A DNA stretch of 64,000 bases from Bacteroidia bacterium (GTDB taxonomy: Bacteria; Bacteroidota; Bacteroidia; 2-12-FULL-35-15): assembly GCA_036386835.1 (NCBI GenBank), contig DASVUX010000003.1:8552-72551 (forward strand), in the 5' to 3' direction. The stretch's first letter is position 1. Each line of letters starts with the position of its first letter. The notes beneath the pieces were generated by a model. The model did not search any database and was not told where the DNA came from. It saw only the letters and a program-made list of their open reading frames with translations. The position numbers and the translations under genes are program-made. Positions 2,367 through 26,815 of this stretch are shown piece by piece.

Positions 2367-2392
2367 TGTCATTCCGACCGTAGTGGAGGAAT
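2367..2392. repeat. Solitary REP-like hairpin element (tgtcattccgaccgtagtggaggaat), same family as the 17.8-18.6 kb array
   Basis: Shares the tgtcattYcgaNcgNagYNgagRaa core with elements at 17788-18645 and 47397-47481. Confidence 0.4.
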
Positions 2393-4320: not shown

Positions 4321-4950
4321 TCAATTTAAAGGAAGGTAAAGGGGATGTTTTTCGTTATACCTACGGAGATAAATAAAGATTGAATCGGCTTTCTGGCGCT
4401 TTTTCAGCTTCATGAATTCTGTGTGCAGCTCCGGATCATCCTCCAGGATAATTTCCATATTCCGGACATTAAAATCCAACGCTTTGTTGGTGCGGGTATC
4501 CAGCACAAACTGCCTGAGCTCATCGTTAGTATTTATGCCATAGGTGTTCATTGGATCCTGGTAACCAACCGGTGTCATTACTACGGCCGCAAAAAGGCTT
4601 AAAAGCCCGATCTGGTTAATCCTGTTAAAGTCATTATTAAAATTGATGAACAAGGACCTGTTCTGGCAATATCCCCAAACTGTCATCGTTTCAACCCGCT
4701 GCTCCACTCCTTCCGAATTCCTGAAGGTGATATATTTCTGGTTGGTGATCTGCTTCATAAAATCCACCTGTGATTTGGGATAGCTGGATATAATAGCAGA
4801 CTTCAGTACAGGATCATTTCTTTTAAAATGCTCAAGTGATAAAAAAACACCCTCTTTAAAATCGTAATCACGGGAATATGCAACCGAATCAGGCCCGGCA
4901 ACAGCGGCAAATGGCAGCAAAAACAAAAATGAAAGCAGCAGTTTCATCAT
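4321..4950 (-). CDS. Secreted hypothetical protein, last gene of the dlt-like operon
   Basis: Signal peptide MMKLLLSFLFLLPFAAVAG; 8-bp gap to the upstream gene. Confidence 0.45.
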   Translation of the reverse strand: MMKLLLSFLFLLPFAAVAGPDSVAYSRDYDFKEGVFLSLEHFKRNDPVLKSAIISSYPKSQVDFMKQITNQKYITFRNSEGVEQRVETMTVWGYCQNRSLFINFNNDFNRINQIGLLSLFAAVVMTPVGYQDPMNTYGINTNDELRQFVLDTRTNKALDFNVRNMEIILEDDPELHTEFMKLKKRQKADSIFIYLRRYNEKHPLYLPLN

Positions 4951-4958
4951 TACCCGTT

Positions 4959-5906
4959 TTATTCTTTATTGAGCTTATTGATATACTTCGCCAGTGAATC
5001 GGTAAATATACGTGAACCTTCAATGTTAAGGTTCAGCGCGGATATATAATATTTCCTTGAAAAGGCTATTTCCATTTCCTCAAACCTCACATATTTAATG
5101 CCGTAATTTTCCGCTACCTGGTCGATCCTTTTTATTATTGTTTTCCTGTTTGGCTGAAAGGCAACAGCTTCTTTTAACACAGGTGATTCATAAAGTATCA
5201 CTCTTATCTTTCTACTGAGTGCCAGCTCGATCGTTTTTCGCAGATACTTTTCTCTTTTAAGATCCCACTCAAAATAATAGCCAAGAGGGTATAGCCGGAC
5301 AAATTCATCGTGATGGTTGTCCCAGACCACTTTCTGGGGAGGCTCATAACCATCAGCATAAAAAGGCTGTTTCCGGTCCTGTACATAATGTTTCAACCCC
5401 TGAAGGGCATCAAAATTAATCCTGCTGCTGTAATATGCATATTTCATAAAGGGAATATTTACGAATTTGAAATACCCCGGGTCCATTTCCTTTACCACAG
5501 AATCTACTACAGGATCGCCAATATACGGAGCGAAGCGGTAGGTATTGAATGTATTGTAGTTCCGGTCCATTGACTCAGGCGTAACATATAAAAACAGTAT
5601 TTCCGGTGCTTTGTTATTCTGAAGATAAAAATACAAGTGCAGGTAATTATCCGCAAAATCAGAATGGCTCAGGGCAAGATTGTAGGAATGTTTACTGATC
5701 TTTTTATCTATCGCTTTTGGGGAGATCATCCATAAAGGTTCGCAGGGCCCGTGAAAAAGCAGGTCGGCATTTATTTCCGCCAGCTGAACGTAGGCCGCTT
5801 TGTTATTCGCATTATGACGCAGAGCGAAATCATAAGCTTTACCTAACCCGGTGAGGACAAGCAAAACAATGATTAAAGAAATTAATATTTTTTTTATGTC
5901 ATTCAA
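4959..5906 (-). CDS. Membrane-anchored DltD/AlgJ-like accessory protein (inferred from context)
   Basis: Single N-terminal TM helix. It lies 2 bp downstream of the MBOAT gene, the position DltD/AlgJ occupies in O-acyltransferase operons. No strong motif recognised. Confidence 0.4.
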   Translation of the reverse strand: MNDIKKILISLIIVLLVLTGLGKAYDFALRHNANNKAAYVQLAEINADLLFHGPCEPLWMISPKAIDKKISKHSYNLALSHSDFADNYLHLYFYLQNNKAPEILFLYVTPESMDRNYNTFNTYRFAPYIGDPVVDSVVKEMDPGYFKFVNIPFMKYAYYSSRINFDALQGLKHYVQDRKQPFYADGYEPPQKVVWDNHHDEFVRLYPLGYYFEWDLKREKYLRKTIELALSRKIRVILYESPVLKEAVAFQPNRKTIIKRIDQVAENYGIKYVRFEEMEIAFSRKYYISALNLNIEGSRIFTDSLAKYINKLNKE

Positions 5907-11546: not shown

Positions 11547-12422
11547 GTGCCTGCAAAAACCATAAACAATTATCTTTCACTTGTCAAGTTCAGCCATACG
11601 ATCTTTGCTTTACCATTCGCGATCATCGGTTATTTTCTCGCCATTACATATACAGGGAAGGCTTTTGACCTGAAGCTGTTCGGGCTTGTCCTGCTTTGCA
11701 TGGTGTTCGTGAGAAGCGCAGCAATGGCCTTCAACCGTTATATTGATCGTGAAATAGATACCGAGAACGAACGGACTTCAATAAGAGAGATCCCGGCAGG
11801 AATAGTAAAACCGACAGCAGCCCTCATATTTGTTTTCGTGAATTGCGTGCTGTTCGTTACCACCACCTTTTTTATCAATGAGCTTTGCTTTTACCTGTCA
11901 CCCGTGGCATTGATCATTGTGCTGGGATACAGCCTGACTAAACGCTTTACCGCGCTGTGCCACCTGATCCTTGGCGTTGGCCTCTCCCTTGCACCCATAG
12001 GTTCCTACCTTGCAGTGACGGGTGAGTTTGCATTGCTGCCACTGCTCTTCTCTTTTGCCGTATTATTCTGGGTAAGCGGCTTCGATATCATCTATGCATT
12101 GCAGGATGAGGAGTTCGACCGTTCAAAAGAGCTGCATTCCATCCCTGTATGGCTGGGAAAAAAAGGGGCATTAACGCTATCCATTGTATTGCATGTACTG
12201 AGCGCACTTTTCGTGATTTATGCAGGGATCTATGCCGGTTTTAACACGTGGTACTGGATAGGTGCCTGCGTTTTCTGCGGCCTTCTTATTTATCAGCATC
12301 TGCTGGTTAAACCTAATGACCTTAGTAAAGTAAACCTTGCCTTCTTCACTATGAATGGGGTTGCCAGCGTGATCTTTGCTGTGTTTGTGCTGCTGGACCT
12401 CTACATTAATTCAAACATGTAA
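11547..12422 (+). CDS. UbiA family polyprenyltransferase
   Basis: NRYIDREID Asp-rich motif and a second DxxxD region (YALQDEEFD); 8-9 TM helices. Confidence 0.75.
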   Translation: MPAKTINNYLSLVKFSHTIFALPFAIIGYFLAITYTGKAFDLKLFGLVLLCMVFVRSAAMAFNRYIDREIDTENERTSIREIPAGIVKPTAALIFVFVNCVLFVTTTFFINELCFYLSPVALIIVLGYSLTKRFTALCHLILGVGLSLAPIGSYLAVTGEFALLPLLFSFAVLFWVSGFDIIYALQDEEFDRSKELHSIPVWLGKKGALTLSIVLHVLSALFVIYAGIYAGFNTWYWIGACVFCGLLIYQHLLVKPNDLSKVNLAFFTMNGVASVIFAVFVLLDLYINSNM

Positions 12423-12480
12423 ATCTTACATGCTTAAGCGCACTCCTGGTTTTCTAGAAAGAATTCATTTAAAAAGGATC

Positions 12481-12546
12481 ATGAAGTATTCTTCAATCCT
12501 GGTATTTTTTATTCTCATCATTATGTTTTCTGCAATTACAGGGTGA
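12481..12546 (+). other. Out-of-frame N-terminal transmembrane anchor of sanA (MKYSSILVFFILIIMFSAITG*), separated from the body by a frameshift
   Basis: A 21-codon ORF encoding a TM helix ends at TGA 12544-12546. The SanA body (frame 0) begins at GTG 12543. One extra G in the GGG run would fuse them. Confidence 0.45.
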
Positions 12547-13121: not shown

Positions 13122-13901
13122 TTAAACAACCCTCTTCAGCAAACGCAGGCGGTGGGAATAATCCTTCTTTTCATTATTGAAAATTCCGTGATGATCGAAT
13201 CCATCGATCCGTACTTTCCCCGATGCATGAATGATCTTGTTATTGTCCATCACAATCCCAACATGGATAATCCTGCCTTCATCATTATCAAAGAATGCCA
13301 GATCACCTGCTTCTGCCTCTTCTACAAAACTTAAGGTCTCACCCTGCTCTGCCTGCTGGTAAGCATCACGTTTCAGCTTCACACCGTTGATCTTATAAAC
13401 CATCTGTGTAAAACCGCTGCAATCGATCCCAAATGGAGTTTTGCCTCCCCAGAGATATGGCGCATTGAGGTACATCATCGCGATCTCCATGATACCGCCT
13501 TTTGAAAAAGGAAGATGACCGCTGATATAAGCGCCATCATATAAATAGCTATGGTTTTCAACTGCACATTCCCCATTATCAAAATTGGGCAATGAGCTCG
13601 CAATTGTTATAGGGAAAAGCTGTTTGCTGTTGTTGTGCGTTACAACCTGGACAAGCTCGTTGGCAGAGAAGATCTCCGTTGAGTTAATAATATCAAAAGT
13701 ATGCTGCTGTATTGGCTGGAACTGCTTTTTATCGATCCAGCATTCGTAGCTGTCATAAGCATTCCTGATCCTGCACCAGTTTCCAATAATCTCCAGTATT
13801 TCAAAATGATCCCCGAATAAAAGCTGGGTGACCATCTCACTCCGGTCAGAAGGCTCTTTCCGGCAGGGAACTATACTTAGGTTGCAGATTCCAAATTGCA
13901 T
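13122..13901 (-). CDS. NlpC/P60 (C40) family peptidoglycan endopeptidase with N-terminal SH3-like domain
   Basis: Catalytic Cys (GIDCSGFTQMVY) and His (IIHVGIV) motifs. Confidence 0.8.
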   Translation of the reverse strand: MQFGICNLSIVPCRKEPSDRSEMVTQLLFGDHFEILEIIGNWCRIRNAYDSYECWIDKKQFQPIQQHTFDIINSTEIFSANELVQVVTHNNSKQLFPITIASSLPNFDNGECAVENHSYLYDGAYISGHLPFSKGGIMEIAMMYLNAPYLWGGKTPFGIDCSGFTQMVYKINGVKLKRDAYQQAEQGETLSFVEEAEAGDLAFFDNDEGRIIHVGIVMDNNKIIHASGKVRIDGFDHHGIFNNEKKDYSHRLRLLKRVV

Positions 13902-13939: not shown

Positions 13940-14344
13940 TCATGGATTAACTCCCGATTTAAACTTTACACCCTTGAATTCAGACGCGTTTAAGTATGAT
14001 ATAAAACCTTTTAATTGCTTACTGATGTCCTCGGATTGTAACTTTAAGTTATTAAATTCATCTGAAGTAATATGTTTGCGGTCCAGTGCCCTATAAAGCT
14101 GTGACCTCACTTCTCCACAGGATCCTTTAGCAATACTTAGAAACTGACGAAATTCCAGTTTACCATCCCGCTCATACCCTTCAGCTATATTATCCATAAT
14201 AGAGCCACTTGATCCATTAATTTGATCTCTTAACTTATAATCTTTTTCAAAGCTTCCGCTGGATGTGTGAAAATGAATCTCATGGCAAAGTTTCCGTGCT
14301 TTCTGCCACACTTCCATATCCTCAAACTTTTGTATAGTTGCCAT
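13940..14344 (-). CDS. Four-helix-bundle protein (TIGR02436, 23S rRNA intervening-sequence protein family)
   Basis: MATIQKFEDMEVWQKARKL...SIMDNIAEGYERDGKLEFRQFLSIAKGSCGEVRSQLY is diagnostic. The true start is the internal ATG; the upstream ORF extension is spurious. Confidence 0.75.
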   Translation of the reverse strand: MATIQKFEDMEVWQKARKLCHEIHFHTSSGSFEKDYKLRDQINGSSGSIMDNIAEGYERDGKLEFRQFLSIAKGSCGEVRSQLYRALDRKHITSDEFNNLKLQSEDISKQLKGFISYLNASEFKGVKFKSGVNP

Positions 14345-14376
14345 ACACAGAATTTGAAATCTGAAATCTGAAATTT

Positions 14377-15717: not shown

Positions 15718-17787
15718 TTGAAAAAAGTTGTTTCCGTTATCCGCCATTCGCACCCAGAGATCTACAAGGCGATCCTGTTTCTTATTGCGCTTGCCGTTAT
15801 TGTTTATGTGTTCCCGAAACAGGGCAAGTTCAAATATGAATTCCAGAATCTCAAAGGAAAACCCTGGTACCATGAAGACCTGATAGCGCCATTCGACTTC
15901 GCGATAAAAAAAACGGCTGAAGAGCTGAACCGGGAAAAAGCAGAGGTTATAAAGAATGCAAAACCCTACCTGCGCTATGATTCCACCATCCAGAAGAAAA
16001 GATCAAAAGCCTTTGAAGATGCGCTGGCCGCCAGCTGGAGCAAAAAAAACTCCGACTATCTCCGCCAGCGGACCCTTGCTTTCGGCAAGGAACTGATCGA
16101 CAGTATTTACTCGAAAGGAATTGTCGCACCGGCAGATGAGCTTGAAAAAAAGCCGCTGGATTATTCTGTCTTCCTGCTTAAAGGGAATATCGCGGAAGAG
16201 CATGAGCTGAACGATTTTTATACCGTTAAATCCGCTTATGAGTATATTGAAGATGAACTCTTCGAATCAAAGATCACCGATGTGGACCGCATTCTCCCCC
16301 TGCTCGAAAATGCCATTGCCCATAATATATTCTTTGATAAGGAAACAACCGAAAAAGTGCTTAAGCAGTCGATAAACGACATTGCACCTTCACGCGACAT
16401 CATCCTGAAAGACCAGAGCATTGTTTCAAAAGGGGAGATCATCACCGCTGAAAAATTCCAGGTCCTTGAATCGCTCCGGATCGAATATGAAGAACAATCC
16501 AACGGTACCGGGAATTATCTTTTTATAGTCCTCGGGCAAATAATCGTGATCGTGATCTGCCTGAGCGTGCTTGCGGCTTTCCTGATGTTCTTCCGGAAGG
16601 ACATTTACCAGGACAACGGCAAAGTCACTTTCATCCTCATGCTTGTAGTGTTGCAGGTGATCATGGCGCACTTCTCCATCAACCTGAATTCATATTCATT
16701 CAATATTTACATTCTTCCTTTCTGTATCCTGCCTATCATCATCCGCGCATTCTATGATACACGTGTAGCGCTTTTTGTTCATATAGTAAATGTGCTGATC
16801 ATCTCTTTCATGGCGCCTGAACAGTTTGAGTTCGCGTTCATCCAGCTCCTTGGGGGAATGGTAGCGATCTTCAGTATTGTGAACATGCGCAACCGCTCAC
16901 AGATCTTTGTCTCTGCGGTGCTGATCTTCCTCACCTACAGCGTTTCTTTCATCGGTATAACGATCATTCAGGAAGGCAGCAATGATGTGATCGTATGGTT
17001 TGATTTTGCACGCTTTGGTGTAAGCGCTTTACTGACCCTCTTCTCCTACCCGCTTATCTTTGTCTTTGAAAAAATGTTTGGTTTCACTTCGGATGTTTCC
17101 CTTCTGGAGCTTTCAGACACCAACGGAAAGCTGCTCCGCGAACTGGCTTCCAGGGCTCCGGGAACCTTCCAGCATTCTTTGCAGGTGGCTAACCTTGCCG
17201 AAGAAGCGATCTATAATATCGGTGGAAATTCACTGCTTGTCCGCACGGGCGCCCTGTATCACGACATCGGAAAAATGGAGATGCCGATGTTCTTTATCGA
17301 GAACCAGGTGAACGGCATGAACCCTCATGAGGACCTGAGCTTTGATGAAAGTGCCGGGATCATTATCGCGCATGTGATCCGCGGGATCGAGATCGCGAAA
17401 AAGAATAATCTTCCCGAACAGATCATTGATTTTATCAGGACACATCATGGTACTACCATGACGGCTTATTTCTACCGTTCATTCAAAAAAGCTTTCCCTG
17501 AAGAAGAGATCGATGAAGCGAAATTCCATTATCCCGGGCCGATTCCTTTTTCAAAAGAAACTGCAGTTCTCATGATGGCGGACTCTGTAGAAGCTGCTTC
17601 CCGGAGCCTTAAGAAATACGACTCCGAAACCATCGATGCCCTGGTTGAAAAGATCATCAATTCACAGATCGAACAGAACCAGTTCGCCAATGCAGACATT
17701 ACTTTTAAAGACATCAACACCCTGAAGAAGATCTTTAAGAAAAAGGTAATGAACATGTATCATGTACGGGTGGAGTACCCGAGGTAG
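15718..17787 (+). CDS. 7TM-receptor / HD-GYP-like HDIG domain phosphohydrolase (YqfF-like)
   Basis: Seven TM helices in the middle and an HD domain (ALYHDIGK ... THHGT) at the C-terminus. TTG start is tentative. Confidence 0.75.
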   Translation: MKKVVSVIRHSHPEIYKAILFLIALAVIVYVFPKQGKFKYEFQNLKGKPWYHEDLIAPFDFAIKKTAEELNREKAEVIKNAKPYLRYDSTIQKKRSKAFEDALAASWSKKNSDYLRQRTLAFGKELIDSIYSKGIVAPADELEKKPLDYSVFLLKGNIAEEHELNDFYTVKSAYEYIEDELFESKITDVDRILPLLENAIAHNIFFDKETTEKVLKQSINDIAPSRDIILKDQSIVSKGEIITAEKFQVLESLRIEYEEQSNGTGNYLFIVLGQIIVIVICLSVLAAFLMFFRKDIYQDNGKVTFILMLVVLQVIMAHFSINLNSYSFNIYILPFCILPIIIRAFYDTRVALFVHIVNVLIISFMAPEQFEFAFIQLLGGMVAIFSIVNMRNRSQIFVSAVLIFLTYSVSFIGITIIQEGSNDVIVWFDFARFGVSALLTLFSYPLIFVFEKMFGFTSDVSLLELSDTNGKLLRELASRAPGTFQHSLQVANLAEEAIYNIGGNSLLVRTGALYHDIGKMEMPMFFIENQVNGMNPHEDLSFDESAGIIIAHVIRGIEIAKKNNLPEQIIDFIRTHHGTTMTAYFYRSFKKAFPEEEIDEAKFHYPGPIPFSKETAVLMMADSVEAASRSLKKYDSETIDALVEKIINSQIEQNQFANADITFKDINTLKKIFKKKVMNMYHVRVEYPR

Positions 17788-18645
17788 TACGGATAACGAA
17801 TCTTTTTTACGAATTTACGAATCTAAGCAGGTACTGTGCGCTGTCATTTCGAGCGGAGTCGAGAAAGCGCGAAGCATCGGTACGCATAACGAATTTTTTC
17901 GAATTCCGAATCTGAGTAGGCACTGTGCGCTGTCATTTCGAGCGGAGTCGAGAAAGCGCGAAGCCCCGGTACGGATAACGAACTTTACGAATTTACGAAC
18001 CCCGCACATACTTCCTGTTATCCCAAATCATCGGTCATCCCGTGCCGCGCCTGCCCCGGACCCGATCCGGGGACACGGGATCTCTCTGTATTAACACTTT
18101 TTGTCCTATAATGTGCGCTGTCAGGCGAAGAGTTAAATTGTCGTTAAATTGTCGAAGTCTATTTCTCGACTCCGCTCGAAATGACAACTATGATCCTGCA
18201 CTTCAGATGTCACTTCGAGCGAAGCCGAGAAGCGCGAAGCATCGGTACGCATAACGAATTTTTTCGAATTCCGAATCTGAGTAGGCACTGTGCGCTGTCA
18301 TTTCGAGCGGAGTCGAGAAAGCGCGAAGCATCGGTACGGATAACGAATCTTTTACGAATTTACGAACCCCGCACATACTTCCGGTGATCCCAAATCATCA
18401 GTCATCCCGTGCCGCGCCTGCCCGGACCCGATCCGGGGACACGGGATCTCTCTCCGTATTAACAGTTTTGTCCTGTAATGTGTGCGCTGCCAGGCGAAGA
18501 ATTAAATTGTCGAAGTCTATTTCTCGACTCCGCTCGAAATGACAACTATGATCCTGCACTTCAGATGTCCTTTCCTATTCCAGTGATTCCAAATCATCGG
18601 TCATCCCGTGCCACGACACGGGTTCTCTCCGTATCACCAGGTTTC
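17788..18645. repeat. Complex intergenic repeat array: ~365-bp unit tandemly duplicated (~2.3 copies), built from direct and inverted copies of a ~45-nt hairpin element
   Basis: gcatcggtacgcataacgaattttttcgaattccgaatctgag... recurs at 17874 and 18239. The core gtgcgctgtcatttcgagcggagtcgagaaagcgcgaagc is present at least 4x direct and 3x inverted. The GC hairpin cccggacccgatccgggg occurs twice. Confidence 0.85.
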
Positions 18646-18839
18646 TCCTTTTCTTTTCTCTTGATAGAGGGCAAAGATCCAGTGGACCTTTGAGCCAGCC
18701 GGTGGGTTGAAACAAAAGATCAAGAACCATCGATTGCTTCCCATAAGCTAAACGGCATCGCGATGGTTCAATCCTTGCGCGCGGCTTCGAAATTATAATT
18801 TTAGAAAACTTAGAAAATCTTTCCGGGTGATAAAAAACA

Positions 18840-20420
18840 CTACCTCATCACTTTCAGCAATGTAGTCGCGATCACATTCCCGCCATCAGCCTGTACGCGG
18901 ACAAGATAAGAGCCTGCAGCAAGCCCGTTGGTCTCAAGGTAAATGGAAGGATCCTGACCGTTGAACATTTGAGCGGTGACAGTTTTGATCACATTCCCCG
19001 TGATATCGGAAATATCAATGGTAAGAAAACGCGGTGCCCTAAGGTGCAATTGCAAAGTTGCATTTCCTGAAGTGGGATTCGGGAAGATCTTCATTTGTAC
19101 ATCCTCGTTCACCATTTCCTGCAGGCTTGTGAAATTTGTCAGCGGGGATTTATTAACGAAGATCTCTGTATTCCCGGCACGCAGGTCGCACCAGTTGCTG
19201 TACAGATAATTACCATCCAGGCACACTCCTATAAAATCATTTCCCCGCTGGATATTAATGAAAGGTGAAGCTGTGGAGCTTAGATTCTGGTCGGGGCTGA
19301 AAGTACTTCCGCCATCGGTTGAGACGCCCGCATAAATCTCGAAAGGGGATGATGAGGTACCGCCGGTATTGCGCCTGTCGCGCCATGCAACCGCATACTC
19401 ACCGGTTTCCGAAAAACCCGCCCAGCACATGTCTTGACCGGCACCGTTTGAAAGCGCATCTTTATTGACTCTTACTGGCGTAGTGTTCCATGTGCTGCCT
19501 CCGTTATTCGAATGCAGGCTGAGAATATCAGGATCACCGTTCCGCTGGTCGGTGAACGTGTAAATAAGATTATTCGCATTTACCGGGTTAGCGCTCAGGA
19601 CATAACTTCCCTGGTAAAGTGTATCCGTTAAGGGTGATCCGGCCGCAGCATACGCAATCAGCTTCGGAGTGAAGGTGTTTCCACCATCAGTGGATTTGAC
19701 ACAGATCGACCTTGGAAAAGGGTTTTGTGGAGGATTATAAGATATATAAGCAATATACAGGTTTCCATCAGCGCCAACAGTCGGAACTCCCATTGCATTC
19801 GGAATAAGGTTTATGGGAATGCTGTCGTCCACAAGCTTGATCGGGCTCCAGCTGCTGCCACCGTCAATGGAGGATTTCATCCAGATATGATGCGGCATTG
19901 CACCGATATCAATACTCTTGCTGACAACATACAGCTTGCCGTCATAAATGCCACCGCTGTTATCCACCGCGATCCAGGGGCGATCAATCGGCATGTCAGG
20001 GGTTTCGTTCATCGATGTGACTTTAACGGGCGTTGTCCAGTTCTGTCCTCCGTTCATGGACTTGGTGACCATCACATAACCGGAATCTTTGGAAGGCGCA
20101 TAATCAATGTATGTCATGTAAGCTGCACCTGATGAATGAAAAGCGATGGCAGGATCCGCCATGGTGAACTGCGGATGCAAATGCGGAATATTGGAAGGAG
20201 CGCTCCAGCTTGCACCTGCATCAGTGGAATAACTCACACCTATGCTTAAACCAAAACCGGACTGTCTCATCCATGCCGCGACCAAGTTGTTGGAATTGGT
20301 TGGATTAACGGCAATGTATGGTTCAGTATCCCAACCGGTGGCGGATGAGAGATTGATGTTGGTTTGCGCTAAAACTCCACAGCATACATTTACAAAAAAC
20401 AGTATTAAAATCTTCTTCAT
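18840..20420 (-). CDS. BNR/Asp-box repeat (sialidase-like beta-propeller) protein with T9SS C-terminal sorting domain
   Basis: At least six SxDxGxTW/F motifs (YSTDAGASW, SMNGGQNW, SIDGGSSW, STDGGNTF, SNNGGSTW, STDGGSTF). Signal peptide. C-terminal KIFPNPTSGNATLQL...GSYLVRVQ CTD. Confidence 0.75.
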   Translation of the reverse strand: MKKILILFFVNVCCGVLAQTNINLSSATGWDTEPYIAVNPTNSNNLVAAWMRQSGFGLSIGVSYSTDAGASWSAPSNIPHLHPQFTMADPAIAFHSSGAAYMTYIDYAPSKDSGYVMVTKSMNGGQNWTTPVKVTSMNETPDMPIDRPWIAVDNSGGIYDGKLYVVSKSIDIGAMPHHIWMKSSIDGGSSWSPIKLVDDSIPINLIPNAMGVPTVGADGNLYIAYISYNPPQNPFPRSICVKSTDGGNTFTPKLIAYAAAGSPLTDTLYQGSYVLSANPVNANNLIYTFTDQRNGDPDILSLHSNNGGSTWNTTPVRVNKDALSNGAGQDMCWAGFSETGEYAVAWRDRRNTGGTSSSPFEIYAGVSTDGGSTFSPDQNLSSTASPFINIQRGNDFIGVCLDGNYLYSNWCDLRAGNTEIFVNKSPLTNFTSLQEMVNEDVQMKIFPNPTSGNATLQLHLRAPRFLTIDISDITGNVIKTVTAQMFNGQDPSIYLETNGLAAGSYLVRVQADGGNVIATTLLKVMR

Positions 20421-20435
20421 CGTGAAAATTAATTT

Positions 20436-20468
20436 AATAAAACGCTTCCGCCCCTTAACGGGGCGGGA
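20436..20468 (-). terminator. Rho-independent terminator downstream of the PorP/SprF gene
   Basis: ccgcccc-ttaac-ggggcgg hairpin followed by gttttatt on the minus strand. Confidence 0.45.
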
Positions 20469-20481
20469 GTATTAGTAAAAA

Positions 20482-21855
20482 CTATTCCAGCTTCTGCAGC
20501 CAGACATCCGGATATTCATTCTTGTATTTCTGCTGTTCTGCTTCTCCTGTTTTCTGATCGTCTGTCTTCATCACATACACATAATACACTTTTGTTTTGT
20601 GGTTCTGGATCACAGAAGTGGACCTGTACCCTTTAATGATATTGGCTTCCTTGAATTTATTTGCGTTATCCTTGCTGCTGAAAGATCCGATCACAATATA
20701 ATACCCGGAATTCATGCTCATTCCGTTCTCATCCACGAAATCGTTGCTCAGGCCTGTACGCATTAAATTCTCTGTAAGATTTTCGCTGTTTCCGCTGCCC
20801 CCTCCATTTTTCATTTTCTGGAGCTCTGCTTTTAAACGCTCCATCTGTGCCTGGTTCGTATCTGCCTGCGCTTTCAGTTTTGCCAGCATCTGATCCGTCA
20901 GCGAATCTTTCGACTCTGTCCTTGTAACAACGGGAACCGGCTCTTCTGCGCGCCTGCCGCCTCCACCGAATGTATAGCTCAATAAAAATTCGGAAGATGC
21001 GCCTGTATATTTCGATACTTTACCAATGCCGAAATCATAGGCATAACCAACACTGAGGTTCTTATAGCGAACACCGATGCTTGCCGCAACAGCATAATCA
21101 CTGTGGTACGTAACCCCTACCCAGCCCATCTTTTTCCAGTCGAGCACCGCATTGATATCATACTGGAAGGGAACGCCTTTGGCACCACTCACGAAGATCA
21201 GAGGATAAGCTGTGATCTCTTTTTCCTTCACCACATCAAATACATACTTCACCGATCCCTGGAAGGTACGCGCAAGGTTGTAATAACTGTTCTCGCCAAG
21301 GTTGTTCTTGTATTTGATCTTGTTGCCCAATACCTGCGGAATTGCAAAGCCGACCTGCAGCTGCTTCCAAGTATAGCCCATGCCGAAATCAGCGCTGAAT
21401 ACTGTCCTGCTCTGGCGCTCATTTGAAAGGAAGGGATCATCAGTATCACGCACAACCGCTTTGGAGAAATCAATGCTGTTATTCAGCACCCCCAGCGCAA
21501 GCCCGAAGAATACATCCTGGTCATCGTTGATCTTCAGCTTGTAAGAATAATTTCCGGAGGCACCCATCCTGGATGTGATGTCGGTAACATCCGAATACAA
21601 CTTCAAACCAAGACCGATGTTCTTCGCTTCAATAGGGCCATCAAGCGTAAGATAGCTTGTCTGCGGACCGCCTTTTACGCCAACCCATTGTGAACGGTGG
21701 GTGATGAACGCACGTGTATGCTCATCGGTTGTTCCCGTGAAAGCGGGATTTGTAACAAACATATTGGTATAATACTGGCTGCTGAACGGTAACTGCTGTG
21801 CGAAGGCCGAAGCTGTAACAAGAAGTAAAGCTGCTGAGATATTTAGTTTCCTCAT
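20482..21855 (-). CDS. PorP/SprF family T9SS outer-membrane protein fused to a C-terminal SPOR domain
   Basis: N-terminal ~300 aa match PorP/SprF (QYYTNMFVTNPAFTG...RSQWVGVKGGPQT). A coiled-coil linker follows. The C-terminus YYIVIGSFSSKDNANKFKEANIIKGY...VYYVYV looks like a SPOR fold. Start at internal ATG (MRKLNISAALLL signal). Confidence 0.8.
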   Translation of the reverse strand: MRKLNISAALLLVTASAFAQQLPFSSQYYTNMFVTNPAFTGTTDEHTRAFITHRSQWVGVKGGPQTSYLTLDGPIEAKNIGLGLKLYSDVTDITSRMGASGNYSYKLKINDDQDVFFGLALGVLNNSIDFSKAVVRDTDDPFLSNERQSRTVFSADFGMGYTWKQLQVGFAIPQVLGNKIKYKNNLGENSYYNLARTFQGSVKYVFDVVKEKEITAYPLIFVSGAKGVPFQYDINAVLDWKKMGWVGVTYHSDYAVAASIGVRYKNLSVGYAYDFGIGKVSKYTGASSEFLLSYTFGGGGRRAEEPVPVVTRTESKDSLTDQMLAKLKAQADTNQAQMERLKAELQKMKNGGGSGNSENLTENLMRTGLSNDFVDENGMSMNSGYYIVIGSFSSKDNANKFKEANIIKGYRSTSVIQNHKTKVYYVYVMKTDDQKTGEAEQQKYKNEYPDVWLQKLE

Positions 21856-21893
21856 AGGATGTTGTTTTGCTGAATTTGTGATTGCTGCTCCCA

Positions 21894-24800
21894 TTATTTC
21901 TCCCCCTGTCTTAATACGGTGATCGCTCCCTTGTAAACCTTATCGGTGCCTTCCATCTCCACGAAATAATAATACGTTCCATCGGCTACCATATTGCCGT
22001 AGCTTTCCGATCCTGACTGCACCCTGCCGTCCCAGTTGTTATCATAGGCCTCTGATTTATAAACCACCTTTCCGCTCCTGTTCACTATGGTAAGCCGCGT
22101 ATTCGGGTAATTCTCCAGGTTCTGGATGATGAAACGGTCATTGTAGCCATCGTCATTCGGTGTCATCACATTTGATACTGTTAATTCAAAATCAACCAGC
22201 ACGGTAACCACCACTGAATCTTTGTCGGTACAGCCGTTCACATCTGTTCCAACCAGGAGATAAGTTGTAGTTGCAAGCGGGCTTGCCATCGGGTTTGGAA
22301 CAGAAACGCTGTTAAGACCGGTGTAAGGGCTCCACAGCCAGCTGATCACCCCGGCACCCATTCCGTTCAGTGTTATTGAGCTTCCCAGGCTTACGGTTGT
22401 ATCATTCCCTGCGAACACTACCGGTCCCGGAATTACCGTGATCACTTCCATGTTGTTCGTGGAGCAGCCGTTAACTGAATCTGTCACGATCACTACATAA
22501 GTTCCCGAAGTTGTTACAGTGATACTTTGTGTAGTATCGGAAGTGCTCCACATATAATCATAAGTACCTGTCGCGGCAGAAAGCACAACACTGTCACCCG
22601 AGCAGAAAGTAAGCGGTCCGCTTGCCGTGATCTCATTTGACGGCACTGCATTCACGATCACAGTGATCATGGCTGTATCCGCACAGCCCATGTTCGAAGT
22701 CGTCAAAAGGCTTGCATTATATGATCCGGCAGCAGCATAAAGATGCACGGGATTTACTGCAAGCGAATTGTTCCCGTCACCGAAATCCCACTGGTGAAAC
22801 TGGATCGATCCGGAAGGAATTGTTGAACCGTTCATGAAAGTCGTTACAGTTCCAAAACAGACAGTATCGGCAGCACCCATTGCCATTGGCTTAGGATAAA
22901 CAATTACGGTTGCCGCGGCAGAAGTATCAGCTGAGCAGATACCGCTTTGTACAATTACCCTGTACCAGGTTGTATCGGTTAAGTTAAGATAAGATTGGGT
23001 TGAAGTTGTGTTAGCAATCGCAGACCATGTTGCGCCTCCGTCAATTGATGATTCCCAGTTTTGAATTGCACCGACATATCCTGCAACAGTCAACGTCCCT
23101 GAATTAGCTCCTTCACAGCCTGCTCCAGCACCGCTGATCATTCCGGCAACGGAAACAGGTGTAACTGTAATCGTAACATTATTTGAAGTCACCGCATTAC
23201 AGATCCCGCTCTTTACAATAGCATGATACATTGTTGTAATGTTCAGGTTATTATAGATAAGTGAATCGGATGTACTTGAAAGTGGTGTCCAGTTGAATCC
23301 GCCATCCGTTGAAACTTCCCAGCCCTGGATCATCCCGGTGTATCCTGTTAAATGCAGCACACCATTATTCACGCCTGCGCAAACGGTATCGTTCATTGCA
23401 AGCGTTCCCGGGTTTGTGGGAGGATTCACATTGATTACAGCTGTTAATGATGTATCATTTCCGCAAAGGCCGCCGGAGATGATCACACGGTACCAGGTAG
23501 TATCCTGGAGATTGCTATATGAATGTGATGCTGATGTATTGCTGATCACCGACCATGTGGTCCCACCATCAGTTGAAGATTCCCATTGCATCACGGGACC
23601 GGACGAACCTGAAAGTGTCAGCATACCGCTGTTGATCGTATCACAAACCGTAGCCGAACCGTTCAGGGTCCCTCCGATGGCAACCTGATCAACCGTTATG
23701 GTCACCGCGTTTGAAGTCACTGCATTGCAGGTCCCGCTCTTTACAATAGCATGATACATTGTTGTAATGTTCAGGTTATTATAGACAAGTGAATCGGATG
23801 TACTTGAAAGTGGTGTCCAGTTGAATCCGCCATCCGTTGAAACTTCCCATCCCTGGATCATCCCGGTGTATCCTGTTAAATGCAGTACACCGTTATTTGC
23901 GCCTGCGCAAACGGTATCGTTCATTGCAAGCGTTCCTGGGTTTGTAGGAGGATTAACATTGATTACAGCTGTTGATGATGTATCATTTCCGCAAAGGCCG
24001 CTGGAGATAATCACACGGTACCAGGTGGTATCCTGGAGATTGGTATAGGAATGTGATGTTGATGTATTGCTGATCACTGACCATGTGAGGCCCCCATCCG
24101 TTGAAGATTCCCATTGCATCACGGGACCGGATGAGCCTGAAAGTGTCAACGTACCGCTGTTGATCGTGTCACAAACCGTAGTTGAGCCGTTCAGGGTCCC
24201 TCCTTCAGCGACAGGATCAACCGTGATGGTAACGATATTCGAAGTTGCTGCATTACACACCCCGCTTTTTACAAGAACCCTGTAAGAAGTAGTTTGTGAT
24301 AAATTAGAATACGGCTGTGAAGCCGTAGTGTTTGACAGGTTGATCCACGTTAAACCGCCATCGGTGGATGATTCCCAGTGCTGGATCGCCCCGGTTTGCC
24401 CGCTTAGTGTGAGTACCCCGGCATTGCTACCTGCACAAACCGTATCATCCGCTGAAAGAGTCCCGCCAGCAGTTGGAGGATCTATGGTAATTGTTGCAAC
24501 GGAAGATGTGTCCATTGCACAAACCCCGCTTTGAACGATCACGCGGAAAGCAGTGGTTACAGGGAGGTTCAGGTAATTCTCCGAAGCTGTTGTGTTTGCC
24601 GTTGCAGTCCATGTCGCACCGCCATCCGTTGATGATTCCCAGTTAAGTATTGTCCCGACATAATTGATCAGGTCCAGTGTACCGCTGTTCATTCCTCCGC
24701 AGGCTGTAGTACCTCCATTCAAAGTACCGCCTGCAGAAACCGGGTCAACGGTAAGTATGGCGGCCGCAGAATTCTGACTCGGGCATGAACCGTTTTTTAC

Positions 24801-26714
24801 CACAGCCCTGAACTGGGTAGTTAAAGTTAAGTTGGTATAGGTATAGGATGTTGCAGTGTTTGCGATGGCAACCCAGTTGATCCCACCGTCAATTGAATAT
24901 TCCCAGCGGACCACATTTCCTGTTTCTCCGGTAAGGTTCAATGTTCCCGTATTATTTCCGTAACAGATATTGCCGCTGGCGGTTACGGTCCCACCGACAG
25001 TCGGTGTGGTTACTGTAATCGTATCGATTGTGGATGTATCGGCCGGGCAAACACCGCTGGCTACTATAGCACGGTAGTAAGTTGTTGCAGCAAGATTTGT
25101 GTATGACTGTGAGGTTGTAGTATTTGTGATCGCATTCCAGGTGATGCCGTCACCCGATGATTCCCATCGCGTAATCGTACCTGTGTGACCGCTTAAAGTG
25201 ATTGTCCCGCTGTTGGCGCCACTGCAGACAGTATCATTGCTTGCGGTTGTTCCTCCGGCAGAAACCGGGCTGACAGTTATTGCTGCAACAGTAGAGTTTG
25301 AAGAAGCGCAGGTACCATTCTTCACATTTACCCTGTAAACGGTAGTCGCAGTTAAATTGAAATAACTTAATGTATCAGTTGTATTCGGGATATTGACATA
25401 AGTAGCCCCGCCATCAGTTGATGACTCCCAGTACTGTATGGTTCCGGTATAACCGCTTAGTGTCAGCACAGCCGTATTACTTCCGCTGCAAACTGCAGCG
25501 CTTGACGAGAGTGTACCGCCTGCTGAAAGCGGTGTGACTACAATTGAATCAGCGGTGGAATATGCAGCGGCACAGGCACCGCTTTTAACCAGCGCCCTGT
25601 AATAACGCGTAGCTGTTAAATTTGTATAAGTCTGTGTTGTGGTGGTATTGGTAATATTCGTCCATGTGCTTCCTCCATTCGTGGAAAACTCCCATCTTGT
25701 GATCGCACCGGTATGTCCCCCTAAAGTAAGTGTTCCGCTGTTGGTTCCGCTGCATACTGTTGTGCCCCCGGTAACATTCCCTCCAACTGTAGCCGGACTC
25801 ACTGTAATAATCCCCACGGAAGAAAACACAGGCGCACAGGCACCGCTTTGAACCTGCACACGGTAACGGGTTGTTGTGGTAAGGTTTGTATAAGACTGCG
25901 TTGCCGTAACATTGGCGATATCGGTCCATGTTGCACCGCCATCCGTTGAGAACTGCCATTTTAAAATATTCCCGGTCCTGCCGGCCGAAGTAAGGTTCCC
26001 GCTGTTTGTACCCGAACAAACTGTAGCAGCCCCGTTGATCGTCCCTCCAACCGAAACCGGATCGATGGTCATTGTGGCAATGGATGATGTTGCCGGGGCG
26101 CAGGCGCCATTCTGAACCTGTGCGCGGTACTGTGTCTGAACGGTAAGATTATTATAACTCTGGGATGTAGTGGTATTGGAAATACTGATCCATGTTGAAC
26201 CGCCATCGACCGAATATTCCCAGTTTGTAACAGAGCCTGTATGCCCGCTTAATGTAAGTGTTCCTGAATTAGTCCCGTTACATACGTTTGTACCTCCGCT
26301 TACTGTCCCCCCAGCAGACGGAGCTGTGGACGTAACCATATATCCCGTAGTTGCGTTATTGGTATTATTAATATCGGTCACTAAAGAAGAATATGCAGTG
26401 AACGTGTAATTACCGGCAGCAGAAAGGTTGGCTGGCGTGGTGAATGTATAAGAAGCCGTGGTATTGGGTGCAAATGAAGGGAAACTCACCAATGGATCGG
26501 TCACAGCGGCACCTGCATTTATAGTATAAGAAAGATCGAATGGCACACCGCTCAGATCGGTGAGCCCGACATTCTTAACTGAAATTGTCACAGCAGAAGC
26601 AGAACTTAATGAGCATCCCGAAAGGGGAGCCGTTATCGCTATAACACTGACATCCTGGGCAGCTGCAATTTTACCAATAAGAATAAGGGAAAAGAGCGTA
26701 AAGATTTTTCTCAT
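21894..26714 (-). CDS. Giant repetitive cell-surface adhesin with PKD domain and T9SS type-B (gliding-motility-associated) C-terminal domain
   Basis: 1606 aa. About 13 copies of an ~88-aa repeat (GGT..G..VC.G.NSGTLTLSG.TG....WE.STDGG.TW..I.NT....SY.NL...T.YR..V.SG.C). PKD-like segment (GDGNNSLAVNPVHLY). C-terminus TPNDDGYNDRFII...GTYYYFVE...GAITVLRQ = type-B CTD. Signal peptide at internal ATG. Confidence 0.85.
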   Translation of the reverse strand: MRKIFTLFSLILIGKIAAAQDVSVIAITAPLSGCSLSSASAVTISVKNVGLTDLSGVPFDLSYTINAGAAVTDPLVSFPSFAPNTTASYTFTTPANLSAAGNYTFTAYSSLVTDINNTNNATTGYMVTSTAPSAGGTVSGGTNVCNGTNSGTLTLSGHTGSVTNWEYSVDGGSTWISISNTTTSQSYNNLTVQTQYRAQVQNGACAPATSSIATMTIDPVSVGGTINGAATVCSGTNSGNLTSAGRTGNILKWQFSTDGGATWTDIANVTATQSYTNLTTTTRYRVQVQSGACAPVFSSVGIITVSPATVGGNVTGGTTVCSGTNSGTLTLGGHTGAITRWEFSTNGGSTWTNITNTTTTQTYTNLTATRYYRALVKSGACAAAYSTADSIVVTPLSAGGTLSSSAAVCSGSNTAVLTLSGYTGTIQYWESSTDGGATYVNIPNTTDTLSYFNLTATTVYRVNVKNGTCASSNSTVAAITVSPVSAGGTTASNDTVCSGANSGTITLSGHTGTITRWESSGDGITWNAITNTTTSQSYTNLAATTYYRAIVASGVCPADTSTIDTITVTTPTVGGTVTASGNICYGNNTGTLNLTGETGNVVRWEYSIDGGINWVAIANTATSYTYTNLTLTTQFRAVVKNGSCPSQNSAAAILTVDPVSAGGTLNGGTTACGGMNSGTLDLINYVGTILNWESSTDGGATWTATANTTASENYLNLPVTTAFRVIVQSGVCAMDTSSVATITIDPPTAGGTLSADDTVCAGSNAGVLTLSGQTGAIQHWESSTDGGLTWINLSNTTASQPYSNLSQTTSYRVLVKSGVCNAATSNIVTITVDPVAEGGTLNGSTTVCDTINSGTLTLSGSSGPVMQWESSTDGGLTWSVISNTSTSHSYTNLQDTTWYRVIISSGLCGNDTSSTAVINVNPPTNPGTLAMNDTVCAGANNGVLHLTGYTGMIQGWEVSTDGGFNWTPLSSTSDSLVYNNLNITTMYHAIVKSGTCNAVTSNAVTITVDQVAIGGTLNGSATVCDTINSGMLTLSGSSGPVMQWESSTDGGTTWSVISNTSASHSYSNLQDTTWYRVIISGGLCGNDTSLTAVINVNPPTNPGTLAMNDTVCAGVNNGVLHLTGYTGMIQGWEVSTDGGFNWTPLSSTSDSLIYNNLNITTMYHAIVKSGICNAVTSNNVTITVTPVSVAGMISGAGAGCEGANSGTLTVAGYVGAIQNWESSIDGGATWSAIANTTSTQSYLNLTDTTWYRVIVQSGICSADTSAAATVIVYPKPMAMGAADTVCFGTVTTFMNGSTIPSGSIQFHQWDFGDGNNSLAVNPVHLYAAAGSYNASLLTTSNMGCADTAMITVIVNAVPSNEITASGPLTFCSGDSVVLSAATGTYDYMWSTSDTTQSITVTTSGTYVVIVTDSVNGCSTNNMEVITVIPGPVVFAGNDTTVSLGSSITLNGMGAGVISWLWSPYTGLNSVSVPNPMASPLATTTYLLVGTDVNGCTDKDSVVVTVLVDFELTVSNVMTPNDDGYNDRFIIQNLENYPNTRLTIVNRSGKVVYKSEAYDNNWDGRVQSGSESYGNMVADGTYYYFVEMEGTDKVYKGAITVLRQGEK

Positions 26715-26815
26715 AAAATAGATTTTAGTTTGAGTAGTGTTCTGTGAAAACACCCCGACCTTATACGAAGGCCTGTTAATTAAGTTACGTATTTAAAACA
26801 CTCATATCCACCCGA

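Follow-up and report, generated by a model that had tools for sequence, protein, structure and literature searches.

What kind of element fills the space between two convergent genes in the 64-kb stretch of DNA analysed here (the window: 64,000 nucleotides of contig DASVUX010000003.1 from a Bacteroidia bacterium)? The spacer at positions 17788–18839 is 1052 bp long, separates the gene of a 7TM-HD protein from a gene encoding BNR repeats with a type IX secretion (T9SS) sorting tail, and is filled with repeats, just as the initial annotation had described for a gap of about 1.05 kb. According to the data presented below the array is, with a probability of roughly 0.78, a locally expanded mosaic cluster of two classes of GTC-tagged DNA hairpins of the repetitive extragenic palindrome (REP) type, having the architecture of CGTC-tagged REPs, to which NTS and dRS3 of Neisseria belong. 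It is comparable to BIMEs of enterobacteria and NIMEs of Neisseria, i.e. mosaic clusters, in which REPs (for BIMEs carrying a GTAG tag and linked to RAYT transposases) or dRS3 alternate with other repeat units, and is a fairly ordinary further case of an already known REP class. The two hairpin classes are designated here as SRM1, which corresponds to the “core” of the initial annotation, and SRM2; both names are our own.

The hairpin nature of SRM1 was assessed from its copies in other genomes. When one genome per species was scanned with GTCAYTTCGAGCGNAGYCGAGAA, the core, whose confinement to this locus the initial annotation would have taken as a sign of an artefact, was found in at least 120 stretches from at least seven phyla, with an overall range covering Bacteroidota, Clostridia, Negativicutes, Chloroflexi, Planctomycetota, Verrucomicrobiota and Spirochaetes. 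Among the matches listed are Christensenellaceae, Dialister, Roseburia, Treponema, Dehalococcoidia, Thermomicrobiales and Ignavibacteriota, and all that these have in common is about 28 nt, (C/T)GTC-A-NNNN-GAGCGNAG(Y)CGA-N'N'N'N'-T-C, surrounded by unrelated flanks. A metagenome scan with the 33-nt version of the core present in the window gave no matches, and full-text search for the core sequence string returned no paper. Covariation links the nucleotide following GTCA to the one following GAA (T with A, C with G), and a looser search yielded many variants of the 5-bp stem, among them ATTCC/GGAAT, ACCTC/GAGGT, AGGTC/GACCT and ATGTC/GACAT, which keep complementarity at constant tag and apex. 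Covariation was then quantified for 50 distinct 28-mers picked by tag and apex anchors alone, with their stems left free. In this set 98.3% of cells were paired, six of seven pairs varied on both sides and 63 cells carried a double change; the score was matched by none of 500 shuffles, and slid controls had 27–53% of cells paired. The apex covaries as well: GAGCGNAGYCGA alternates with GACCGNAGYGGA (G-C replaced by C-G), and the 11-nt GAGCGAAGCGA with GAACGAAGTGA.

SRM1 consists of an unpaired (C/T)GTC tag and a 5-bp stem, which opens with A-T, carries the apex GAGCGNAG(Y)CGA and is followed by C. The apex is interpreted here as comprising two sheared G.A pairs and one G-C pair, along with a bulged pyrimidine and a GNA triloop closed by C-G, so that the whole element comprises 9 positions, a loop of 3–4 nt and 9 positions, with covariation support for seven pairs and G.A at two positions. 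It is well known that d(GCGNAGC) forms a very stable DNA mini-hairpin, and stability of this type would favour a structure formed at the level of DNA. The second class, SRM2, is described by (A/G)GTC-ATCCCGTG…CACGGGAT-CTCT and is sited among SRM1 copies; it has a clean 8-bp stem opening with AT, and shares with SRM1 the GTC tag, the A-T start and the tail.

Within the array the 25-mer TGTCATTTCGAGCGGAGTCGAGAAA, for which the expected count in shuffled sequence is 0, occurs exactly at 17842, 17931 and 18296 on the plus strand and at 18162 and 18520 on the minus strand. Together with a fourth, diverged plus-strand copy at 18208–18233 this agrees with the “at least four” direct copies reported initially, while only two reverse complements were registered instead of three; there are also two truncated core heads (18113–18123 and 18482–18492). 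The tandem unit estimated earlier as 365 bp is real, since segments 17842–18211 and 18208–18569 are 91% identical over 376 columns, and a shorter unit of 89 nt is repeated 2.3 times in the region 17787–17999. Sub-units of the array are 86–98% identical to one another. Recurrence of the two GC hairpins was also confirmed: CCCGGACCCGATCCGGGG was found twice and TCCCGTGCC...CACGGGA three times. In two of its three copies the GC-rich hairpin TCATCCCGTGCC…CACGGGAT has a nested CCCCGGA/TCCGGGG hairpin in the apex. The genes, composite units and individual hairpins are as follows.

15718–17787, plus strand: gene of the 7TM-HD (PgpH-like) protein, left neighbour of the gap.
17787–17841, plus strand: ACGAAT-rich leader of the first 89-nt unit, whose first nucleotide is the final one of the 7TM-HD stop codon; its orthologous position is kept in two of the related loci compared below (L126 and L127).
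17842–18207, plus strand: first composite unit of ~362 nt (SRM1, leader, SRM1, leader fragment, SRM2, truncated head, inverted SRM1).
17842–17867, plus strand: SRM1 copy 1, TGTC-ATTTC-GAGCGGAGTCGA-GAAAG followed by C; by position an orthologue of the single copy of the relatives.
17931–17956, plus strand: SRM1 copy 2, within the second 89-nt unit.
18033–18085, plus strand: SRM2 long copy 1, GGTC tag, stem ATCCCGTG/CACGGGAT, tail CTCT, nested CCCCGGA/TCCGGGG hairpin in the apex.
18113–18123, plus strand: truncated SRM1 head GTGCGCTGTCA without hairpin body.
18161–18186, minus strand: SRM1 inverted copy 1, canonical stem ATTTC/GAAAT followed by A, not C; tags point outward relative to the plus-strand copy at 17931.
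18208–18569, plus strand: second composite unit of ~362 nt, 91% identical to the first.
18208–18233, plus strand: diverged SRM1 copy, TGTC-ACTTC-GAGCGAAGCCGA-GAAG, whose stem carries a compensated change (T>C with A>G); opens the second ~362-nt unit.
18296–18321, plus strand: SRM1 copy 3, embedded in 118 nt that share 98% identity with the surroundings of copy 2.
18400–18451, plus strand: SRM2 long copy 2, AGTC tag.
18482–18492, plus strand: second truncated SRM1 head, GTGCGCTGCCA.
18519–18544, minus strand: SRM1 inverted copy 2.
18599–18628, plus strand: SRM2 short copy, GGTC-ATCCCGTG-CCACGA-CACGGGTT-CTCT.
18840–20420, minus strand: BNR-repeat gene with the T9SS sorting tail, right neighbour of the gap.
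2367–2392, plus strand: solo hairpin of the SRM1 family, TGTCATTCCGACCGTAGTGGAGGAATCTTC, i.e. TGTC-ATTCC-GACCGTAGTGGA-GGAAT-CTTC, with the apex pair swapped from G-C to C-G.

The array is bordered by a long stem GAACCATCG…CGATGGTTC (18722–18768) located just downstream of the BNR stop codon, followed on the minus strand by a T-rich run and kept in L126; it is likely to be the terminator of the BNR gene and the right-hand limit of the array. Open reading frames (ORFs) inside the array had no protein-family match, in line with their initial interpretation as artefacts. BLAST within the window gave no match of the array repeats outside the locus, and the ACGAAT-rich leader is not dispersed but specific to this place. 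The solo hairpin resides in an intergenic spacer about 30 nt away from a terminator-like stem AAAGACCCTGCTC…GAGCAGGGTCTTT (~2308–2336).

Clustering of short repeats in a non-coding stretch brings to mind CRISPR and the repeats of type III toxin-antitoxin systems (ToxI-like), but the array has neither unique spacers nor a constant period, no cas or toxN-like gene adjoins it, and its copies are on both strands. Distances between core copies amount to 89, 365 and 109–653 nt, and the “spacers” are repeated too. The initial statement that this is not a CRISPR array therefore holds, with no cas gene found within ~10 kb. Antitoxin-like tandem RNA repeats were considered separately, prompted by a 45-nt array in Flavobacterium profundi (L019), and were rejected, as most copies are solo and no toxN-like gene was observed. 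The resemblance to BIMEs and NIMEs is much closer: this is an intergenic mosaic of short palindromes in alternating orientation, with other repeated segments between them, situated at the 3' ends of genes and differing in length among close relatives. It differs from BIMEs in having clearly grown by local tandem duplication of composite units.

CGTC-tagged REPs, whose tag is sometimes TGTC or CCTC, have stems of 8–9 bp with A-T/T-A as the first two pairs, loops of 4–5 nt and a 3-nt tail (PMC3733652). They form head-to-head pairs, have intragenic copies, possess no associated transposase, are not linked to RAYT genes, and were described in Proteobacteria, Chlorobi, Bacteroidetes, Spirochaetes and Thermotogae; dRS3 of Neisseria and RPE-4/6 of Rickettsia belong to them (PMC3733652). 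In the window TGTC starts all six SRM1 copies as well as the solo at 2367, while SRM2 starts with GGTC or AGTC. Head-to-head pairs, occasional in-frame copies in genes, the lack of an adjacent transposase and the presence in Bacteroidetes and several other phyla correspond to the same class. The stem of about nine positions opening with A-T agrees in part: SRM1 has two G.A positions, and the first A of the plus-strand copies of the window faces G. The differences are that clusters are reported to be rare for CGTC REPs, and that the phylum range of the motif is wider here, including Clostridia, Negativicutes, Chloroflexi, Planctomycetota and Verrucomicrobiota.

The in-frame copies are exemplified by Flavobacterium tibetense (L014, 3200–3440), where a motif pair (GTCACTTCGAGCGGAGTCGAGAA … TCTCGACTCCGCTCGACTTGAC) and one further related copy are read in frame in a 438-aa glycosyltransferase ORF and appear to form an extra inter-domain linker segment, as was reported for Rickettsia RPEs. 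Three degenerate positions of the core are synonymous in one frame (CAY, CGN, AGY), but a coding role was rejected, since the length of related variants differs by 1 nt, the stems covary and copies are found in every context and orientation. In Flavobacterium profundi a tandem array of at least five copies with a period of 45–46 nt, GTCACTTCGAGCGCAGTCGAGAAGCCTTATTTAAAAAA(A)CNACCT, is present at a contig end (L019, 6890–7174), with further copies at 4390–5550; this cluster is far more regular than that of the window.

A closer link leads to the NTS sequences. SsnA of Neisseria is a 94-aa single-domain GIY-YIG protein, which binds NTS (CGTCATTCCCGCGMAVGCGGGAATCYRG), an extended dRS3, as single-stranded DNA (ssDNA) and cuts it a few nucleotides upstream of the tag, while double-stranded DNA and RNA are not acted upon and RNA is not bound (PMC11893778). 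For cutting, the GTC preceding the palindrome is important, and for binding the C that follows it, the most critical base there; homologues of ssnA in various phyla are flanked by “Ssn-related motifs” (SRMs), and in N. meningitidis the Ssn system reduces transformation by NTS-bearing DNA (PMC11893778). The motif found here, TGTCATTTCGAGCGNAGTCGAGAAATCT, lines up with this architecture at each position and shares with NTS the unpaired (C/T)GTC tag, the A-T start of the stem, a short apex and, except for the minus-strand copies of the window, C after the palindrome. Both are directional, mostly intergenic and form clusters adjoining surface-protein genes, and the hairpin class of the core flanks small single-domain GIY-YIG genes. 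They differ in the middle of the SRM1 stem, which is non-Watson–Crick (tandem G.A and a bulged pyrimidine), in the absence of an ssn gene from the window, and in the host, an uncultured Bacteroidia bacterium.

Association with GIY-YIG genes was registered in two genomes and then quantified in metagenomes. Both carry the exact motif beside the gene: in a Dehalococcoidia genome (L052) a 98-aa ORF has motif copies on both sides, and in a metagenome-assembled genome of Flavobacteriales (L017) a 96-aa ORF begins 160 nt past a canonical motif copy and partial inverted copies. Pfam GIY-YIG is the main match of both proteins (one of them also weakly matches T5orf172), and among solved structures the UPF0213 protein 1ZG2 is the nearest to them. 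We then took 80 metagenome loci with homologues 41–56% identical to these proteins and counted hairpins that had an HGTC tag and a perfect basal stem of 5 bp. Their density was 2.46 per kb closer than 300 nt to the gene, 0.40 per kb at 300–1000 nt and 0.24 per kb at distances over 1 kb, which makes an approximately 10-fold enrichment within 300 nt. At least one such hairpin was present in 47 of the 80 loci, and by our own reading of the listing about 24 loci had them on both sides. Apex classes near the homologues include GAGCGAAGCGAA, GAGGAGCGAAGCGACGAA, GAGCGTAGCGA and others, and hairpins with the GA apex typical for the window were found 11 times within 300 nt of the genes and once elsewhere. 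In one locus (L171) the homologue is flanked by TGTCATTCCCGCGCAAGCGGGAATCCAG, which differs from the published NTS consensus only in the first base (T for C) and thereby ties the whole set to the published Ssn family. The motif cluster with the GIY-YIG gene in L017 (206–1414) directly follows a thiolase gene, and in the window, likewise, the 7TM-HD gene has a thiolase gene next to it on the upstream side, which is probably a coincidence.

In one of the relatives (L128) a solo SRM2, located at a different place, exactly matches the published SRM pattern and is paired with an inverted partner bearing compensated changes ATGCCGTG/CACGGCAT. The same relative contains between its BNR and PorP genes (13811–13880) two hairpins of a further class arranged head to head (AGTC/CGTC-ATTGC-GAGCGGTAGCGAA-GCAAT-CT), where the window has a spacer of just 61 bp. 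The pattern misses SRM1 because of the tandem G.A and the bulged pyrimidine, and surveys of Ssn target sites probably undercount them in Bacteroidota, Clostridia and Chloroflexi. The GA-apex hairpin GTCA-NNNN-GAGCGNAG(Y)CGA-NNNN-TC is, nevertheless, widespread and adjoins Ssn-like GIY-YIG genes.

Several observations weigh against assignment of the array to this class of REPs. The published pattern HGTCWYN(0-2)YYVSBRHN(0-5)WNVSBRGN(0-2)RNCYNB has no matches in the window, where the copies are 2–3 positions off. Tails are CGC in plus-strand and AGA in minus-strand copies, and CTN or CCN in the wider family, whereas the reported tail is mostly CCA-like; distances between head-to-head partners in the array are 199–206 nt versus typical 20–100 nt. 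GTC is retained in all SRM1 copies, while C follows only the plus-strand ones (GAAAG-C), which carry an A.G mismatch at the stem base, and is missing after the palindrome of the minus-strand ones (GAAAT-A); due to this mismatch and the missing C some or all copies of the window may be decayed. Apart from the array, the remaining 63 kb of the window hold a single solo copy, so that the genome may not be rich in REPs. No Ssn-like GIY-YIG ORF was detected in the 64-kb window or in the 22-kb loci of L126–L128 with a hidden Markov model built from 81 sequences (E≤1), and a cognate nuclease of this organism is therefore hypothetical. Finally, nearest-neighbour folding of SRM1 gave only −1.5 to −2.6 kcal/mol, not above shuffles, and its pairing rests therefore on covariation; the same calculation gave −8.9 kcal/mol (z = −4.3) for Neisseria NTS and −6.4 and −14.6 kcal/mol (z = −2.2) for SRM2.

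Could the repeats have been spread by a transposase, either as IS-derived miniature inverted-repeat transposable elements (MITEs) with terminal inverted repeats or as RAYT-type REPINs, where GTAG REPs are moved by an IS200/IS605-like tyrosine transposase? Both orientations are indeed present, with tags directed outward as in REPINs, the junction TGTCA[86 nt]TGTCA resembles a duplicated target site, and Bacteroidetes have Y1 transposases flanked by atypical hairpins (PMC6006769). However, the tag is TGTC rather than GT[AG]G, no RAYT linkage was found for CGTC-tagged REPs (PMC3733652), the 89-nt and 362-nt units are arranged in tandem and have, outside the cores, no match in the rest of the window or in 200 other loci, and no transposase is annotated within ~10 kb, although the whole window was not searched for Y1 transposases. 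The only inverted repeats are the 25-nt cores, and neither terminal inverted repeats nor target-site duplications bound any unit. An origin of this kind is very unlikely, and from the initially suggested “amplifying MITE/REP cluster” we retain REP-like elements amplified by tandem duplication, but not a MITE with dispersed 89- or 362-nt units. A nested insertion with TGTCA duplication at 18119–18212 was also considered and dropped, being indistinguishable from deletion of a hairpin body.

Growth of a REP-type cluster in place is consistent with the state of the locus in relatives. Three of them (L126–L128) are syntenic, with 7TM-HD proteins 92, 87 and 88% identical to that of the window. The comparison of array length among relatives, proposed in the initial annotation, gave gaps of 348, 229 and 94 bp versus 1052 bp. 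None of the relatives is free of repeats: in each, one SRM1-like hairpin immediately follows the 7TM-HD stop codon, preceded in two of the three by the same ACGAAT-rich leader, and the closest relative, L126, contains one degenerate SRM2 ahead of the conserved stretch by the BNR gene. The ancestral order would therefore be leader, SRM1, spacer, SRM2, and the SRM2 short copy at 18599–18628 is, judging by its position, probably the ancestral one. Since the relatives have a single copy, about 700 extra bases (roughly 17876–18577) represent a lineage-specific expansion. They may have been gained when copies of the repeats recombined unequally or slipped during replication, presumably starting from tandem duplication of the 89-nt unit, followed by acquisition of the inverted SRM1 block and then by duplication of the whole ~362-nt unit. 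Sub-unit identities of 86–98% fit successive tandem duplications with gain of an inverted block better than transposition of a defined element.

Position of the array between the 3' ends of convergent genes raises the question, whether it works mainly as RNA, i.e. as a 3'-untranslated element, as a series of terminators or of mRNA stabilisers, or as a locus of small RNA read from the end of the 7TM-HD or BNR gene. Each orientation of SRM1 is “sense” to the gene reading toward it, a single unit keeps its place after the stop codon in the relatives, and REPs of other bacteria affect termination and mRNA stability (PMC3733652). The whole region also folds better than shuffles on both strands (z −3.4 and −6.7), but this is a trivial consequence of the 25-nt perfect inverted copies. 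At the same time, no Rfam match was found in the region even at E≤10 and nothing relevant window-wide at gathering thresholds, the array has no canonical terminator with a T-run, and SsnA, the enzyme of the related motif, acts on ssDNA and does not bind RNA (PMC11893778). Among 137 motif occurrences across genomes about 70% are intergenic, which is only indicative since crude longest-ORF calls were used, and by the same crude calls no clear orientation bias relative to flanking genes was seen (same/opposite 47/35 upstream and 40/43 downstream). Lack of bias together with mostly intergenic location fits a DNA-level element better than a signal in the sense strand of RNA. Function at the RNA level is hence unlikely, and the structured small-RNA locus of the initial annotation found no support. 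A hammerhead-like reading (GTC...GAAA flanked by GCGC) was rejected, as there is no space for stems I and II or for the CUGAUGA box.

Repeats of this kind tend to break contigs, and one has to make sure that their number and order are not produced by assembly. The BNR protein is encoded on contigs of five assemblies (ENA, JGI, Logan). Three of these five independent contigs end within the array, which is explained by this tendency, one of the three (L004) has one 89-nt unit fewer, and the 11-bp unit GTTAAATTGTC (18132–18142), which only the window and L002 contain twice, is present once in L001, L003 and L004 (in L004 near 12411–12512). On the other hand, two assemblies obtained by different centres from different samples cross the whole gap: the JGI contig with 100% identity and the ENA contig with 99% identity and a single 11-bp indel. 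Moreover, units that are 86–98% identical are not exact copies and are resolvable by short-read assemblers. The array is not an assembly artefact, and it is extremely unlikely that its copy number and order are. The missing 89-nt unit and single 11-bp copies could reflect either real copy-number polymorphism between samples or assembly collapse.

What a GTC-tagged hairpin cluster does in this genome can only be inferred, by its resemblance to the family and by the association with genes measured across other genomes, which together suggest the following mechanism as the most probable one. Hairpins would extrude in single-stranded DNA and would be recognised by an Ssn-type GIY-YIG nuclease encoded elsewhere in the genome, while the repeats would grow through recombination or slippage between copies. 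If such a nuclease is encoded, the array would be a hot spot of strand-specific ssDNA cleavage, marking a recombination boundary beside surface-protein genes like NTS clusters in Neisseria, where such cleavage makes recombination of incoming DNA less frequent; otherwise it would be inert selfish or relic DNA. Even being inert, it might stall or end transcripts of both convergent genes. A bolder version assumes that an Ssn-type nuclease of this uncultured lineage uses tandem-G.A/GNA-triloop hairpins, spread over at least seven phyla and lying outside the published SRM consensus, so that the array is an active boundary of ssDNA cleavage and recombination beside a variable block of T9SS surface-protein genes, and the breaks also drive tandem amplification. 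This is unlikely, but if true it would extend the NTS/SsnA mechanism of Neisseria to Bacteroidota and give GIY-YIG nucleases a RAYT-like role in REP propagation. The finding as such is modest: a REP-type mosaic cluster was caught in the course of expansion, with one unit in close relatives and about ten hairpins here. It also exemplifies what such loci do to annotation, with spurious ORFs appearing within the array and contigs breaking there.

Gene content changes right at the side of the array. In L126 (12419–22070, compared with 18840–26753 of the window) the BNR gene is split into three ORFs, and after it a different set of genes with T9SS tails replaces the PorP/SprF gene and the gene of a 1600-aa CHU_C protein. 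Another difference was noticed on the opposite side of the 7TM-HD gene. At ~13951–14355 on the minus strand (16066–16470 in L001) the window contains between the thiolase and NlpC/P60 genes a 134-aa 23S_rRNA_IVP gene, encoding a four-helix-bundle protein; L126–L128 have at this site a spacer of 80–150 bp alone, so that the gene looks like a recent single-gene insertion.

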